A stretch of DNA of 19,842 nt from a virus, in IMG/VR virus record IMGVR_UViG_3300045988_179637, positions 1-19,842 of that record. One strand, written 5' to 3'. The notes below the pieces were generated by a model that was not told the DNA's origin, made no database searches, and saw only the letters and a list, made by a program, of their open reading frames with translations. The first letter of the stretch is position 1, and each line of letters starts with the position of its first letter. Shown here in pieces: positions 1 through 19,842 of the stretch. The position numbers and the translations under genes were made by a program.

Positions 1-342
1 CAGGTTGTTCATTTTTTGGTCACAAAAAATGGCCCTTCTTTCCCAGGCCTTACCAACACAAACACACGTAGGGGCTGGTCCAATTACGGACGGGCCCCTT
101 GACGCTGCTCGTTTTTCGTTCAGACAAATCCACTCGTGTACGTCATCATGCATCTATTATTACATACTTCTTCTCTTCTCGCAACACCTAGAACCTTCTA
201 GTTCGTAACGGTTTCATAACATCTTGTGCTGTCCTGTCCAACCCTTGCAACAGCAAACTGTGCAATATGGAATGTTCATTTATTGCCAGGGGTGGGGCGG
301 GGCCGTAGAGTAGGACACGTCGAAAGGAACAAAAAATGAACA
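1..342. repeat. Left inverted terminal repeat (342 bp), the exact reverse complement of 19501-19842
   Basis: Bases 1-342 are the reverse complement of the last 342 bases. This was checked at both ends and in the middle, and the ORF-track entries 5..208(+) and 19635..19838(-) translate identically. Identity stops after ATGAACA at 342. Confidence 0.95.
266..318 (+). promoter_or_regulatory. Sigma70-like promoter inside the left terminal repeat: -35 TTGCCA (283-288), 17-nt G-rich spacer, -10 TAGAGT (306-311), upstream element GGAATGTTCATTT (269-281)
   Basis: Hexamers are close to consensus with 17-bp spacing and sit 25 nt upstream of the AAAGGA ribosome-binding site and ATG at 336. Nearly the same promoter recurs at 920-948. 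Confidence 0.6.
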
Positions 343-797
343 TTCATGCGGCCACCTACGTCGCTCGCGAACTCTCTGACCGTCTCTACGCCGCCGGCTT
401 CCGGGGCGTGTGCGACATGGATCGTATTGGGTCTGTCATCAGTGCGTACACTACGTATCATCGTGCCCGTAAGGGGCTCACTGAATACCTGGTTGGTTGC
501 GGCGTGCGCGGTGATTACGCGCCCCGTATCGCGGTCCTGGCGGAGCGGGCTTTCCGTCGTGGCGGTGGTGACTGGGGCGGTGCGGGAGCTTTCGCCACCA
601 TCTTGGTGGCGCTTAATGACGCGTCTGGAATGCTGCGCGACGACCCGTCGCGCGTGCGTTCCTTGACTCACGTGATGGAACAGTATGAGCGGGAGGAACT
701 TGACCGTGAGGGTGTGCGTAAGCGGTTGCGGCGGGGGTCATACTGGCGGGGGCGTCAATGGATTGCCAATGAGGTCATGTTGTATTGGTGCGCGTGA
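336..797 (+). CDS. Early hypothetical protein, paralog 1 of a three-member family (shares CDM(D/P)xI, GGAG(A)F...ML(R/A)xD and W.YW motifs with the next two genes)
   Basis: AAAGGA ribosome-binding site 9 nt upstream. A single gene sits between the promoter in the terminal repeat and a strong terminator. The start codon lies inside the terminal repeat. Confidence 0.7.
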   Translation: MNIHAATYVARELSDRLYAAGFRGVCDMDRIGSVISAYTTYHRARKGLTEYLVGCGVRGDYAPRIAVLAERAFRRGGGDWGGAGAFATILVALNDASGMLRDDPSRVRSLTHVMEQYEREELDREGVRKRLRRGSYWRGRQWIANEVMLYWCA

Positions 798-3112: not shown

Positions 3113-3143
3113 GTGGGGGAGTGGTGTGACCACTCCCCCACCA
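3113..3143. other. Perfect 13-bp-stem hairpin GGTGGGGGAGTGG-TGTGA-CCACTCCCCCACC in the non-coding convergence zone, followed by C-rich direct repeats (ACTCCCC, CTCCCCTACC x2, through about 3208)
   Basis: Read directly from the sequence. No T-tract follows on either strand, so it is not a classical terminator. Confidence 0.6.
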
Positions 3144-3315
3144 CTCCCCTATCGTGTGCGTAGCAGCATTTTGATTATTCACCCCTCCCCTACCGCTCCC
3201 CTACCGGTCGAATCGGCTTTGACTAGGGGTTTTGCTGTTGCCGGGTGTTGTGTGTCTCCCCTCTTGGTGGAATATTTATGATTTTCACCACTCGTTATTG
3301 AGAATCATTCTCATT

Positions 3316-5855: not shown

Positions 5856-7571
5856 TCAGATTGCGTTCCCTTGCGTGTCCTTCCAGCCCTCGAGGGTGAA
5901 GATGCACAGTTTGTTCTTGCCGGTGTGCCAATACATGGCACCCATCATGGATTTCGCAGCATCCCCGAAGGAAGGGAGGGTGTCGCCGTAGCCGGTGACG
6001 ACGGCCCCGTTCAACGGGGACGCGATGTGCTGGCCGGCGTGGAACACCTGCTGGCCGCCACGATCCTGGTTCACCCTGTACGGGAACGTCGCAACGGTGG
6101 TTCCGGGCTTCCTTGGGCGCATGTACCGGTAGGCGCCGGTGGACATGTTCGTGTTCGAATCGCCGAGAGCGATGACCTGCAACGCGCCCGGGTTGGTTTC
6201 ATTCGTGTCGATGATGAAACCGGCGTCCTCGTTCGGAGAACCTCCCTTGTAGAAGTTGCCGATGAGGTTGAGGTTCTCGCCGGAGCCTTGCTGGGAGGCG
6301 TCCCAGATGGCGCGGTGGTTGGGAAGGTAGATCTGGCAGCCGATGGCGGTGGCGGAGGCGCCGCCGCCACGGAAGTGCAACAGCCTGCGGCTCTCGGCCT
6401 GGATCTGCTTGTCGCTCTCGAAGTAGGTCCCGAAGATGCTGACCTGGCAGTTCGTGTTCAGTTCGATCGCGGTCTGATACGCCTCGATGGCGCCACCGTT
6501 GATGCGGCACATGGTGCCCTCCCTGAGGATGACACCCATTTTCCCGTTCTTGTCGCCACGGTCGGCCATGATGTGAGGCTCCGTCACGGCGAGGTTGTAG
6601 CAGTAGTTCGCGTCGACTGCGATCGTGTTCCACCACCACTTGCAGCGATCCAGTTGGGTGTACCAGTTTTGTTCCAGGTACACCGCTTTGTCCCATTTCA
6701 GGAAGTAGCAATCCCTGATGGTTGCGTAGTTCTTGATGTGCAACCCGATGCAGCCGAGGCGTTCGAAACCCGGGCCTTCGAGGCGCATGCGTTCCATGAC
6801 GTTGCCGTACTTCAAGACGATGCCCTTGGATTCTCGCATGTCGAACACAAGGGAGGAGTCGGGTTCGTTGTCGCCCCACTGCCCGGAGGTTCCGGCAATG
6901 TACTGGTCCTCGAGGAACTCCAAGGAACCAGTGACCCGGTACACACCCTTGGGGAAGTACACATGGCCACCCTTCCCGGCAGCAGCGATCGCTTTCCGGA
7001 TGGCAGCGGTGTCGTCGGTTGTTCCGTCGCCGGTGGCTCCGTGGTCCTTGACGACCTCGTAGTGGCGGTTGGCCTTCTTGGCTGCGAATTCCCGCACTTC
7101 CTTGACCTCCCGGTCGACCTTGGCGGTCAGTTCGGTGCGGGCGGTGCCGACGAGCTGCTCGAGGGAGGCACGGGCCTGCGCGACCTGGTTGGTGAGGTCG
7201 GTGCGGAATTGCTGAATCGTGGCGTCGGTGTCGCTCTTGTATTTCCCGAACACCTTGTCGAACTGCGCCGTCGTGTACGTCAACAACTCTTCGCCATTCA
7301 TCATGGCGAAGTGAATGATTCCGTTCTCGTCGTCGTGAACGGTGTGATGCACGAACTTGGCGATGAACTCGTTGATCTTGTTCGTCGAATCCGTGACGAA
7401 CTTCTCGATCGCCTTGTCCTGAATGCCGTGCGCATTCACCAACTCGTTAACCTTGTCCTTGATCTGCGCAAGCACATCGAGGAATGTGTACGCATCGGAG
7501 TGGGTGAATGCGACAACGGAGTTGATCGGACCGATCGGGCCGATTGGTGCAATGTAGGGGGCTATGGGCAT
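5856..7571 (-). CDS. Pre-neck appendage / tailspike-like protein (phi29 gp12-like) with a right-handed beta-helix (pectate-lyase fold) depolymerase domain
   Basis: VKDHGATGDGTTDDTAAIRKAIAAAGKGGHVYFPKG matches the N-terminal cap of pectate_lyase_3 / phi29 gp12. Gene order follows connector then lower collar. TGATG overlap with the lower-collar gene. Confidence 0.8.
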   Translation of the reverse strand: MPIAPYIAPIGPIGPINSVVAFTHSDAYTFLDVLAQIKDKVNELVNAHGIQDKAIEKFVTDSTNKINEFIAKFVHHTVHDDENGIIHFAMMNGEELLTYTTAQFDKVFGKYKSDTDATIQQFRTDLTNQVAQARASLEQLVGTARTELTAKVDREVKEVREFAAKKANRHYEVVKDHGATGDGTTDDTAAIRKAIAAAGKGGHVYFPKGVYRVTGSLEFLEDQYIAGTSGQWGDNEPDSSLVFDMRESKGIVLKYGNVMERMRLEGPGFERLGCIGLHIKNYATIRDCYFLKWDKAVYLEQNWYTQLDRCKWWWNTIAVDANYCYNLAVTEPHIMADRGDKNGKMGVILREGTMCRINGGAIEAYQTAIELNTNCQVSIFGTYFESDKQIQAESRRLLHFRGGGASATAIGCQIYLPNHRAIWDASQQGSGENLNLIGNFYKGGSPNEDAGFIIDTNETNPGALQVIALGDSNTNMSTGAYRYMRPRKPGTTVATFPYRVNQDRGGQQVFHAGQHIASPLNGAVVTGYGDTLPSFGDAAKSMMGAMYWHTGKNKLCIFTLEGWKDTQGNAI

Positions 7572-14343: not shown

Positions 14344-15999
14344 CTATACCTTCAATTCGTAGGGCCGGGGCACGAGGCACACCCCACCGGGCACACGTTT
14401 CGACGCAAGTTTGCCCTCAAAGATCCTGCCGGGTTCGAAATCGCCAATGGTCAACTCGGACGCGACACTGCGAGGCATGCCGGCAATGTGAACTTCATTG
14501 ACGCCATCCACACGTTTGTCGATGTAGCACTTGGCACGCCAGTACAGGGCGTAAGTGAATGAGTACTCGTGTTTCCACAACCCCAGCTCCGAGGGATGTT
14601 CCATCAGTTCTCCGGTATTGGGGCGAAGTACGTGCACGGAGTCGGTGTCGGCATAAACGAAGTCATCCCCGAACGCCTGCGCGGCGGTGATGGTCTTCCG
14701 GCGGGCGTAGGCGGTGACGAACACCGAAACCGGTGTGTAGACGGGATCCTTGACCTCAGGTACACATTCGACGAGACGTATCACCCCGTTTTCGAGAATG
14801 GGGCGTTTGGAGCGAACCTCGGGGCGGGTGGCGAACTTGCCGTACAGGGAGTTGAGGTGCAGTTTCGCCAACAAACGGGCACCGCCCGTAGCAGCGGCCT
14901 TTATGGCCATGTAGTGGTCGATGTAAGCGTTGAAAAGACCAGTGCGGGTTTGAAAGTAGAAGCCTCCGTGCCATTCGATGATGTTCAAGTCGTAATGCTG
15001 TTGCCAGAGTTCCAAGTCAATGTTGGTGACAGTCAATGTCACGGGTTCCTCAATGACGGTGAGATATTCAGTGGCGGCAAAACGAGAATTGTTCTTGATC
15101 TGAATACAGGGCAACATACCCGGCCGAATGGTGGCGGTCAGGCTGATCTCAACAATGTATGTGCGCCACGGATCCGGACGCCCCTCGAAACGAATGGGCT
15201 GACCATATGGCAATTGCTGGGTGCGCATCGCCCACGGATAAATGGAGTTGTTGTCATACACATCCCCATTGCAGACAACAATTCGAGCATACTTCTCATT
15301 GAGGAATGTCCAGCCGCCACGATAAGCGCCGCGTATGAAGTCATCAACATCACGTTCCAGCACAGGTAGGGACACTTCCCAGTCCTTCGTGAGACGTTTG
15401 AAGGCTGCCAGGGAGTCGGAGCCGATCGTGAGTTTCGTATTACCCTCAGCGAGAGTATGTGCAACACACTTGGCACCAATGATGATATCGTGATCGAGGT
15501 AACGCCACTCCTCCACGGTCGGTTCGTACCCCACAGATCGGTCGGCGTCGTAGTCGATCTCGAGTTTCCGTTCCGCCAGCCCGTAAGTCACAGCCAGCGC
15601 CGAGATCGACAAGGGCAGTTTCTTCAACGAGTCAGCGAACACAACCTTTTGCCCATTGGGGAACAGGCAGGTGATCGTGTAATACTGGCCCATCTCCGAT
15701 ATGCACGTGGAGAACTGGCACTCGCGCAACAAGGAATCCTCATTCCACACCCAGCCACTACCCAGCAGATAGGACAAAATGAAGTCCCCGTCGAAAGCCA
15801 AATTGTGGAAGTAAATGCGATTGTAGGGCCCGTCCTGCACCCAATCGAGAAACGATTCAACGTCAAGGCCATGAACCACCTGTTCGCGTGTGACATCAGG
15901 TGTGACGGGCGCGATGCCCCAGCACCACACCCGGCAGTCATCGACCTTGTTGACAGTTTCGAAGTCAGCGAACCCCGCTACCTCATTCCTCGTCCCCAT
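14344..15999 (-). CDS. Protein-primed family-B DNA polymerase (phi29 gp2-like)
   Basis: Exo I DFETVNK (residues 12-18, as in phi29), Exo II YFHNLAFDGDFIL, Exo III YLDHDIIIG, motif A DNNSIYP, motif B KLHLNSLYGKF (phi29 has KLMLNSLYGKF), motif C YADTDSVH, KxY region KCYIDKRVDG. Confidence 0.97.
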   Translation of the reverse strand: MGTRNEVAGFADFETVNKVDDCRVWCWGIAPVTPDVTREQVVHGLDVESFLDWVQDGPYNRIYFHNLAFDGDFILSYLLGSGWVWNEDSLLRECQFSTCISEMGQYYTITCLFPNGQKVVFADSLKKLPLSISALAVTYGLAERKLEIDYDADRSVGYEPTVEEWRYLDHDIIIGAKCVAHTLAEGNTKLTIGSDSLAAFKRLTKDWEVSLPVLERDVDDFIRGAYRGGWTFLNEKYARIVVCNGDVYDNNSIYPWAMRTQQLPYGQPIRFEGRPDPWRTYIVEISLTATIRPGMLPCIQIKNNSRFAATEYLTVIEEPVTLTVTNIDLELWQQHYDLNIIEWHGGFYFQTRTGLFNAYIDHYMAIKAAATGGARLLAKLHLNSLYGKFATRPEVRSKRPILENGVIRLVECVPEVKDPVYTPVSVFVTAYARRKTITAAQAFGDDFVYADTDSVHVLRPNTGELMEHPSELGLWKHEYSFTYALYWRAKCYIDKRVDGVNEVHIAGMPRSVASELTIGDFEPGRIFEGKLASKRVPGGVCLVPRPYELKV

Positions 16000-17077
16000 G
16001 TTTCTTCTCTAGTTCCTTTTGGTACTTCACGGTACGCCGTTTCCGTTCACGCGCCCTCTGCGCACCCGCCTTCCGGATTCGTTTCTTGGCATCCTCATCC
16101 GAAGAAGCCTGGATCAGCGGTTTCTTGTGCACATACCCAGCAGCGGCGGAACGTGCCCTGGCCTCCGCGCGGCGCATGTTGTACCGGTCCTGCTCGGAAT
16201 ACTCAGGCTTGTACCATGACGGAGGCTCATTGAACAGCGGCTTGCGACGCCGCTTGTACAAGTCGCCCGGGGTGTAGCCGTCGGCCCAGTCGACGGCCCG
16301 TTTGATCTCTTCCTGTTCCCACCACAGCGCATCCTCGCGGTTCGCACGCTCGGTGGCCTCGGTCTGCGGGTCCAGAATGATCTGTGTCTCAATGTAGGCC
16401 AGCCGAAGGTTGCTGGAGAAGTTGCGGTTGAACAGCCACAGCATCTCGACCTGGGCACCAGTGAGTTGTTGCACCTTCGGCACCAGTGCCGGATAGACAA
16501 GCCCAACCATTTTCTCCATCGAGGCCCTCGCGGAAGCGATTCGTTTCTCCTTGTGCTCCCGGGTAAACACATTCTCATTCAACTCGGTGAGGCGCCGCAG
16601 AGAGTTCTCGTTGGTAATCTGGTGGGGCATGCGATTCACCTTCACCAGATCATCGGGTGAGGACTTCGGCACCCTTTCAGGATGAACGGATGGAATGACG
16701 ATTCTTCGCCAGTCACCGTAGCTGGAGTCAATGTTGGGGGAAGTGGCTCGTTCAATCTTCTCGAGTTTCCGCTTCACCCCAGCATTACGTTTCTTCTCGG
16801 ACTTCTTATACTTCCGCCACTGCTCAGAAGTGACGAACTTGCCGTTCCCGAGCATGACGAACGAGTTCTTTCGGGAATTGAATGATTCGAAGCGTTGAAT
16901 CGCCGCATCCAATTGCTTGTTGGTGTAACCGGCCATTTTCTTCTTGTCCAGCGGAGGGGCTTCAACAGCGGTGTGGCCTTCACGTTTCCAGTACTGAACC
17001 TTGCGCTTGGCCCTGTGGTGCAGCTTCGCGAGATACTCGCGCTTCTCCCGGAGATTCATGATGAAACGGGCCCCCAC
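15983..17077 (-). CDS. Putative terminal protein (priming protein); alternative start ATG 17059
   Basis: Highly basic and charged 364-aa protein immediately upstream of the protein-primed polymerase, overlapping it by 17 nt. Gene order terminal protein then polymerase matches phi29 and Cp-1. No sequence alignment was attempted, so the call rests on position and composition. Confidence 0.55.
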   Translation of the reverse strand: MGARFIMNLREKREYLAKLHHRAKRKVQYWKREGHTAVEAPPLDKKKMAGYTNKQLDAAIQRFESFNSRKNSFVMLGNGKFVTSEQWRKYKKSEKKRNAGVKRKLEKIERATSPNIDSSYGDWRRIVIPSVHPERVPKSSPDDLVKVNRMPHQITNENSLRRLTELNENVFTREHKEKRIASARASMEKMVGLVYPALVPKVQQLTGAQVEMLWLFNRNFSSNLRLAYIETQIILDPQTEATERANREDALWWEQEEIKRAVDWADGYTPGDLYKRRRKPLFNEPPSWYKPEYSEQDRYNMRRAEARARSAAAGYVHKKPLIQASSDEDAKKRIRKAGAQRARERKRRTVKYQKELEKKHGDEE

Positions 17078-18769: not shown

Positions 18770-19507
18770 TCACCAAACGAAAGGCGAGCACTCATACAAT
18801 TCATCAACCGCGTTGCCCAGTCCTTTCCGTTCAGCATCGGCATACCCCTTTTCGACAAACCACTCCCACCATGCATTCATGAGAGTTTCCACATACTTCA
18901 ACTGCGCATGGACACCAAGATTACCGGTCCATCCGGGCGGAAAAAGCATGACGACATCCGCAAGAGCGAGAACCGTGTCCAGGCTGAAGGACGCCCCAAC
19001 GAGTGCCCGGACATGAAAACCAGGATCCAGAAGTTGCGTGTACCAGGCTCTGATCGCCGCGAAGGATGGCACAGTCTCCAACGGATGGCTGTAACAGGCG
19101 GAAGTGATGTCATCCACGAAACGTTCAGCCTCCAGAAGGCGGAGCCCCTCGTAGCCGACAGAGACGAAATCCGTGTGAAGCTGCTGAAAACCACCGTAAC
19201 GCCTGAAAGTGACAACCGATTCCCGGCATGCAATGGCGATGTCCTCGGCGTATGGCCAGTCGAGCATGAACCATGCAAGAATGGTGTCCAAACGGGGACT
19301 CTTCTCCCATGCGGCTCTGATCGTACAGGCAACTGAAAAGGCCAGTCCTGGTTCGGCATTGTCGTCGATCAAAAGGTTGGTGAGGCTGTCGGTGCCCTCA
19401 CGGCAGGCTCGCAAAATTCCTTCCATGTTGACCCACCCGTCACAGTGTGTGAAGTCCAGCAGCGTGAAGATCTTGCGTTGTACTGCGAGTTCCACCAGGT
19501 TGTTCAT
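18770..19507 (-). CDS. Hypothetical early protein (245 aa); start codon ATGAACA lies inside the right terminal repeat
   Basis: Driven by the inward promoter copy in the right terminal repeat. AAAGGA ribosome-binding site inside the repeat. No recognisable domain. Confidence 0.6.
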   Translation of the reverse strand: MNNLVELAVQRKIFTLLDFTHCDGWVNMEGILRACREGTDSLTNLLIDDNAEPGLAFSVACTIRAAWEKSPRLDTILAWFMLDWPYAEDIAIACRESVVTFRRYGGFQQLHTDFVSVGYEGLRLLEAERFVDDITSACYSHPLETVPSFAAIRAWYTQLLDPGFHVRALVGASFSLDTVLALADVVMLFPPGWTGNLGVHAQLKYVETLMNAWWEWFVEKGYADAERKGLGNAVDELYECSPFVW

Positions 19508-19842
19508 TTTTTGTTCCTTTCGACGTGTCCTACTCTACGGCCCCGCCCCACCCCTGGCAATAAATGAACATTCCATATTGCACAGTTTGCTGTTGCAAGG
19601 GTTGGACAGGACAGCACAAGATGTTATGAAACCGTTACGAACTAGAAGGTTCTAGGTGTTGCGAGAAGAGAAGAAGTATGTAATAATAGATGCATGATGA
19701 CGTACACGAGTGGATTTGTCTGAACGAAAAACGAGCAGCGTCAAGGGGCCCGTCCGTAATTGGACCAGCCCCTACGTGTGTTTGTGTTGGTAAGGCCTGG
19801 GAAAGAAGGGCCATTTTTTGTGACCAAAAAATGAACAACCTG
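19501..19842. repeat. Right inverted terminal repeat (342 bp)
   Basis: Reverse complement of 1-342. Long terminal repeats are typical of protein-primed linear genomes. Confidence 0.95.
19525..19577 (-). promoter_or_regulatory. Mirror copy in the right terminal repeat of the promoter (-35 TTGCCA, -10 TAGAGT on the minus strand), driving the 245-aa gene
   Basis: Identical sequence to 266-318 by terminal-repeat symmetry. Confidence 0.6.

Follow-up and report, generated by a model that had tools for sequence, protein, structure and literature searches.

Both ends of the virus genome analysed here carry the same inverted terminal repeat, and within each copy a predicted host-type (sigma-70/sigma-A-like) early promoter, its ribosome-binding site and a start codon would give two unrelated first genes identical expression signals, with the two copies kept alike by concerted evolution; we put the probability of this reading at about 0.8. 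The window, that is, the whole stretch of 19,842 nucleotides (nt) recorded as IMGVR_UViG_3300045988_179637 in IMG/VR, is, judged from its sequence, a complete linear phi29-like protein-primed actinophage genome of 19,842 base pairs (bp). The features that carry the argument are the following.

1-342, no strand: left inverted terminal repeat, 342 nt, 100% complementary to 19501-19842, its first 11-13 nt doubtful
19501-19842, no strand: right inverted terminal repeat, perfect mirror of 1-342
283-311, + strand: predicted left inward promoter, with -35 TTGCCA at 283-288, a 17-nt spacer at 289-305 and -10 TAGAGT at 306-311; predicted transcription start near 318
19532-19560, - strand: predicted right inward promoter (mirror copy), with -35 at 19560-19555 and -10 at 19537-19532; predicted transcription start near 19525
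322-328, + strand: ribosome-binding site GAAAGGA (AAAGGA at 323-328), 7 nt before the ATG
19515-19521, - strand: mirror copy of the ribosome-binding site in the right repeat (AAAGGA at 19520-19515)
336-342, + strand: shared ATGAACA, with the ATG at 336-338; the right ATG lies at 19507-19505 on the - strand
336-797, + strand: left terminal gene, 153 amino acids, no known family; the repeat takes in its opening 7 nt (ATGAACA)
18770-19507, - strand: right terminal gene, 245 amino acids, no known family, first gene of the operon for a single-stranded-DNA-binding protein (SSB), terminal protein and DNA polymerase, its first 7 nt likewise inside the repeat

A sequence-only reading of the window had proposed that promoter, 5' leader, ribosome-binding site and the opening 7 nt of both terminal genes (336-797 on the + strand and 19507-18770 on the - strand) are identical at the two ends, and that the genes encode different proteins. 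The first proposal is exact at the positions listed above, the repeat as a whole being far beyond chance, and the second holds equally well: a BLASTP comparison of the 153- and 245-residue products gives no similarity (E = 1.3), on which ground a distant paralogy between them was rejected. Neither product matches a family in Pfam or PHROGs, and exact database look-ups returned no record of the window's own two end proteins. Identity between the ends halts abruptly past position 342, with left-type and right-type ends matching at about 12-14 of the 38 positions from 343 to 380, and each terminal open reading frame opens at the first ATG past an in-frame stop (on the left, TAG at 306-308). Homologues of the left product fall into 22 clusters with 65-100% amino acid identity to the window protein, all starting MN followed by I or L; those of the right product form 18 clusters with 58-100% identity, the full-length ones starting MNNL. 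Since every full-length homologue of both genes begins Met-Asn, the repeat boundary, placed inside codons 2-3, is both old and stable.

The promoter was assessed against relatives of the phage: upstream regions were taken from five left-type and seven right-type ends, and the promoter footprint was followed in ten related end sequences from at least five strains. The -10 hexamer reads TAGAGT in nine cases, with one each of TACAGT and TAAAGT, conforming to TAnAGT throughout; the spacer is constant at 17 nt in all relatives, its sequence being just 59-88% identical to that of the window; and the block TGTTCATTTnTTG, which extends into the -35, is conserved up to the final three -35 bases, which vary. 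Further downstream, GTCGAAAGG is invariant across all relatives and its spacing to the ATG shifts by no more than one base, while the substitutions found after the ATG are synonymous (AAC/AAT, CAT/CAC, GCC/GCT; CTG/CTC, GTA/GTT), which indicates that translation begins at the shared ATG. A conserved -10, a spacer fixed in length and variable in sequence, and a maintained distance between ribosome-binding site and start codon together support a real promoter module, as had been proposed. A promoter scan found no alternative candidate upstream of either terminal gene, the other candidate within the repeat facing outward.

A paralogous copy of the same module outside the repeats adds to this comparison, and involves three further features.

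804-829, + strand: intrinsic terminator after the left gene, an 11-bp stem followed by a T-run, with stem and T-rich tail conserved in relatives
896-948, + strand: P2, predicted paralogous promoter, comprising TGAACA (896-901), N8, TGTTCA (910-915), -35 TTGCCA (920-925), a 17-nt spacer and -10 TACTGT (943-948)
259-278 and mirror 19565-19584, no strand: operator-like imperfect palindrome TGTGCA-N8-TGTTCA, ending 4 nt ahead of the -35

P2 sits behind the terminator and ahead of gene 2 (ATG at 989), in a region 75% similar to the promoter region of the repeat and conserved in four relatives. With a strong terminator placed right behind the left gene, transcription from the left repeat promoter is probably limited to this one gene, P2 restarting it for genes 2-5. 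The palindrome of the repeat is kept as TGYGCA-N8-TGTTCA in all relatives, and its counterpart at P2 (896-915) is a perfect and likewise conserved TGAACA-N8-TGTTCA, also 4 nt ahead of the -35; a palindrome so positioned before three early promoters is probably the binding site of a regulator, and no DNA-binding regulator was found among the proteins of the genome with Pfam or PHROGs.

Homogenisation between the two ends, the remaining element of the sequence-only reading, gains support from strain differences. The repeats of the window show 0 differences in 342 nt, as against 88% identity to the repeat of the related contig L001 (12% divergence, with a genome-wide identity of about 85%). Contigs L001 and L010, both right ends, and L022, a left end, belong to one strain (strain A), being 99.6-99.95% identical in their overlaps, and in this strain the 55 nt running through ATGAACA are letter-identical at both ends while differing from the window at about ten positions. 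A third variant of the repeat is common to the left ends L017 and L018 and the right ends L019, L020 and L021. The sharing of strain-specific substitutions by both ends shows that the repeat copies evolve in concert.

Several observations weigh against the interpretation as a whole. The inward hexamers score 9/12 against the promoter consensus, and matches at this level are not enriched in the window (6 found, 5.9 expected in shuffled sequence), although four of the six fall in the repeats, 3.4% of the sequence. Taken by itself the hexamer match does not exceed chance, and it is position together with comparative conservation that carries the promoter call; the -35 is weakly conserved past its TTG (TTGCCA, TTGCCG, TTGCTC, TTGTGT). 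Graph assemblers collapse repeats longer than the assembly word size, so that the 100% identity of the window repeats may be slightly overstated, with a few differences possibly hidden. None of the relatives yielded a contig holding both ends complete, and the covariation of two ends covers only the innermost 55 nt, in a single additional strain pieced together from separate contigs.

A different account would make ATGAACA part of a regulatory site instead of a side effect of the position of the repeat boundary, with a factor that recognises AAATGAACA at the start codon, beside the -35, at P2 and at the terminus coupling replication with early expression. This draws on the distribution of the 9-mer, which occurs exactly 8 times, always within 920 nt of an end, and at 14 sites against 3.5 expected when one mismatch is allowed, as well as on the TGAACA-N8-TGTTCA palindrome, perfect at P2, imperfect at the repeat promoter and conserved at both. 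The start-codon copy, however, is a lone half-site with no partner at the 8-nt spacing and reads AAGATGAACA in relatives and ATGAATC in L024, the copy at the terminus falls in the 11-13 nt missing from four related contigs, and no DNA-binding protein was identified in the genome with Pfam or PHROGs; we regard such a coupling as decidedly unlikely.

The extreme tip of the repeat has a history of its own. Nucleotides 1-18 of the window exactly repeat 19496-19513, the reverse complement of the start region of the right gene, with a match at 20 of 21 positions between the terminus (1-21) and the right-gene start (19496-19516); the A6 run that gives a 7-nt microhomology is unique to the window strain among the relatives compared. 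Four independent related contigs, produced by three pipelines, share position 14 as their first nucleotide (TTTTGNTCAC), and the first 11-13 nt of the repeat are present solely in the window assembly. These nucleotides are probably either an extension particular to this lineage or a chimera formed by template switching; the genuine end of the genome is probably a T-run, 5'-T(4-6)GGTCAC. That the match between terminus and right gene reflects reused origin sequence was considered and rejected as a conserved feature, given the four contigs starting at 14 and the relatives without the A6 run. With the tip in doubt, the terminal copies of AAATGAACA leave consideration; the finding of shared signals is unaffected.

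Less likely than a regulatory site at ATGAACA is that the inner part of the repeat serves as a platform for replication or packaging, bound by origin or terminal-protein factors, with the hexamers incidental and the terminal genes transcribed otherwise or by read-through. The chance-level frequency of promoter matches across the window would suit such a platform, the TGAACA/TGTTCA motif suggests protein binding, and nt 14-225 form the best-conserved part of the repeat among relatives, above the promoter region, which implies that the repeat has other functions. Against this stand the absence of any other promoter candidate ahead of either gene in the promoter scan; the invariant -10 and the variable spacer of fixed length, a classic promoter footprint; the recurrence of the module at P2, in sequence beyond the repeat that is not expected to act as an origin; and the pneumococcal (Streptococcus) protein-primed podovirus Cp-1, in which the equivalent elements are mapped promoters. 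Least likely of all is that identity through the ribosome-binding site and ATGAACA reflects a recent one-off duplication of an end, or assembly collapse, rather than continuing homogenisation: the collapse of repeats beyond word size in graph assemblies, the first 11-13 nt of the window that look non-genuine and the lack of an identity gradient in a repeat that is perfect and then abruptly ends would all fit, but the same boundary recurs in independently assembled relatives at 84-94% DNA identity whose left and right contigs enter different genes, the Met-Asn start is common to full-length homologues of both genes over the whole range of their divergence (58-100% for the right, 65-100% for the left), 12% divergence would not collapse in assembly, and repeat variants that differ between strains and match between the ends of strain A form a pattern that a single recent duplication cannot give.

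Returning to a repeat-borne promoter held in common by concerted evolution, we infer promoter activity, start sites, early timing and the mechanism of homogenisation along the following lines. Host RNA polymerase would start near 318 and near 19525, producing at either end a leader of about 18 nt, the GAAAGGA site and the first two codons, Met-Asn. The left transcript would cover the 153-residue gene and then meet the terminator, and the right transcript would be that of the replication operon, comprising the 245-residue gene, SSB, terminal protein and DNA polymerase. By analogy with what is established for adenovirus and other protein-primed replicons, the ends would be corrected in one of two ways: displaced single strands could pair through their self-complementary ends, or one end could recombine with the other or serve it as a switched template. 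As such correction stops where homology ends, inside codon 3, the boundary would be stable.

The assignment of the window to the phi29-like phages draws on a protein-priming family-B DNA polymerase (PF03175, DNA_pol_B_2, E = 4.3e-57, at 14344-15999 on the - strand), a Gp16-type packaging ATPase (PF05894, E = 2.2e-60), a phi29-type major capsid protein (PF25622, E = 1.3e-90) and a phi29-type single-stranded-DNA-binding protein (PF17427, E = 4e-6), with connector and tail-knob domains found in relatives of the phage. The nearest isolate is Actinomyces phage Av-1 (Dybvigvirus), the polymerases being 49% identical, which makes oral Actinomyces or Schaalia candidate hosts; neither genome nor repeat has a DNA-level match to any isolated phage. 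Close relatives, at 84-87% DNA identity to the window, are present in IMG/VR, ENA and Logan assemblies, and a Human Microbiome Project sample is among the sources of related contigs (one contig). Both ends read inward: a short set of genes occupies the + strand from 336 to about 2900, and a long set the - strand from 19507 down to 3480, opening with the 245-residue gene, followed by SSB, the presumed terminal protein and the polymerase.

15983-17077, - strand: basic open reading frame of 364 amino acids, presumed terminal protein, adjoining the polymerase upstream as in Av-1; no family match

In the left arm past the first gene (about 800-2700), the number and content of genes vary strongly between strains (L008, L010, L017, L022, L024), the remainder of the genome being collinear between strains at about 85% identity. 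Where the two operons converge, weak sub-threshold Rfam matches to sX14 and ncS16 at 2831-2922 and 3113-3177 coincide with GC-rich hairpins followed by T-runs, which most likely act as bidirectional terminators and not as small RNA genes. In one IMG/VR contig, internal sequence (about window position 7124) runs into 29 nt of repeat sequence (window 90-118, at L005:4717-4745), a junction that may represent a chimeric assembly or a defective deleted genome.

The outer part of each repeat carries a second predicted transcription unit, directed towards the terminus.

156-184, - strand: predicted outward promoter, with TTGCGA at 184-179, a 17-nt spacer and a TG-extended AATAAT at 161-156; mirror copy at 19659-19687 on the + strand
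24-149, - strand: candidate small RNA of about 125 nt, running toward the terminus and ending in a hairpin (33-51) followed by a U-run; mirror copy at 19694-19819 on the + strand

In relatives the hexamers of the outward promoter are invariant and its spacer is variable. The stems of the candidate RNA are invariant, with changes confined to loops and no covariation (RNAalifold, 4-5 sequences), and the z-score of the fold is only -1.8. No prohead-RNA match was obtained in the window with Rfam at E <= 1; the prohead RNA is equally unmatched in Cp-1 and Av-1, which places these phages beyond the range of the family model. The outward transcript could be a packaging RNA, in which case each genome would hold two copies. 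Between the divergent promoters lies the block CTAGAACCTTCTAGTTCGTAACGGTTTCATAAC (189-220, mirror 19623-19654), near-invariant in six related sequences and holding a short inverted repeat, CTAGAA..TTCTAG. A search of genome contigs with the repeat pattern gave as its sole match 22 nt in an alphaproteobacterium, which was set aside as chance.

In a tentative extension, to which we give a low probability, each repeat would be a two-way control module of about 330 bp, made up of a small RNA gene read outward, a central conserved block and an inward promoter under a TGAACA-N8-TGTTCA operator that also governs P2. Were this true, the ends would be indistinguishable for packaging and ejection, so that either could enter first with an early gene expressed at once, and the three early promoters would be switched jointly by one regulator.

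Among characterised phages the closest parallel is Cp-1 (record NC_001825), which likewise has long terminal repeats and inward early promoters equidistant from both ends, as well as an annotated outward promoter inside the repeat at a place equivalent to that in the window; no DNA similarity is detectable between the two phages. Its annotated repeat of 236 bp is perfect to nt 236, and in our alignment shows about 8 mismatches from there to about nt 352, a span that includes both mapped promoters. The mapped starts are PE1 at 351 and PE2 at 357 on the left, and PE4 and PE5 at 351 and 257 from the right end, followed by first genes that differ between the ends and start 376 and 375 nt from them. 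Unlike in the window, identity in Cp-1 decays ahead of the ribosome-binding site, leaving leader, ribosome-binding site and start codon similar and not identical, and the promoters are two in tandem; in the window, perfect identity runs about 25 nt further, through leader, ribosome-binding site, ATG and 4 nt beyond.

Av-1 resembles the window in genome plan, one end opening a long inward operon and the other a short one made up of small genes, and its annotated (predicted) -35 signals lie 206-211 nt from both ends, with a 210-bp repeat that is 94% identical. That repeat, however, stops right past the -35, the -10 and leader being partly similar and the first genes starting at 285 and 270, and a simple scan of it found no outward promoter. 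The tectivirus PRD1, from an unrelated virus lineage, shares protein priming, inward first early genes at 233 and 241 nt, and promoter-like elements at matching positions; its perfect repeat is just 110 bp, and the promoters, loosely similar between ends, lie just interior to it, so that a placement of PRD1 early promoters inside the repeat was rejected.

In phi29, promoter A1 at the left end faces outward and drives the prohead RNA, and p6 binds the ends and represses promoter C2. An inward early promoter, C2, lies near the right end of this phage, and the small RNA gene is transcribed toward the other end (PMC11476376). The phi29 repeat is of 6 bp, the ends bear different signals and the prohead RNA gene is single, whereas the ends of the window are identical over about 330-342 bp. 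The other actinophage relatives Voltaire, Mendel, Mantle, Evcara and RHph_N3_8 were rejected as comparators, their terminal genes being outward-facing or one-directional. A literature search, with the original Cp-1 and PRD1 papers outside its reach, found no description of start codons inside the repeats of phi29-like phages. The principle of the layout is already set by Cp-1, and the window is the far end of a series running from PRD1 through Av-1 and Cp-1 to the phage described here.

For phages of this kind, the pattern is documented across a clade of uncultured phages and leaves the current picture of them unchanged. For annotation, it means that at either end the start codon of the first gene may lie within the repeat, where contigs often break, and the compact, naturally duplicated promoter and ribosome-binding unit is a possible part for use in Actinomyces-type hosts. 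For the biology of the phages themselves, end-to-end correction of a repeat can carry a full expression cassette, from promoter to second codon, and sharing of the cassette would force two unrelated genes into common signals and a common N-terminal Met-Asn.

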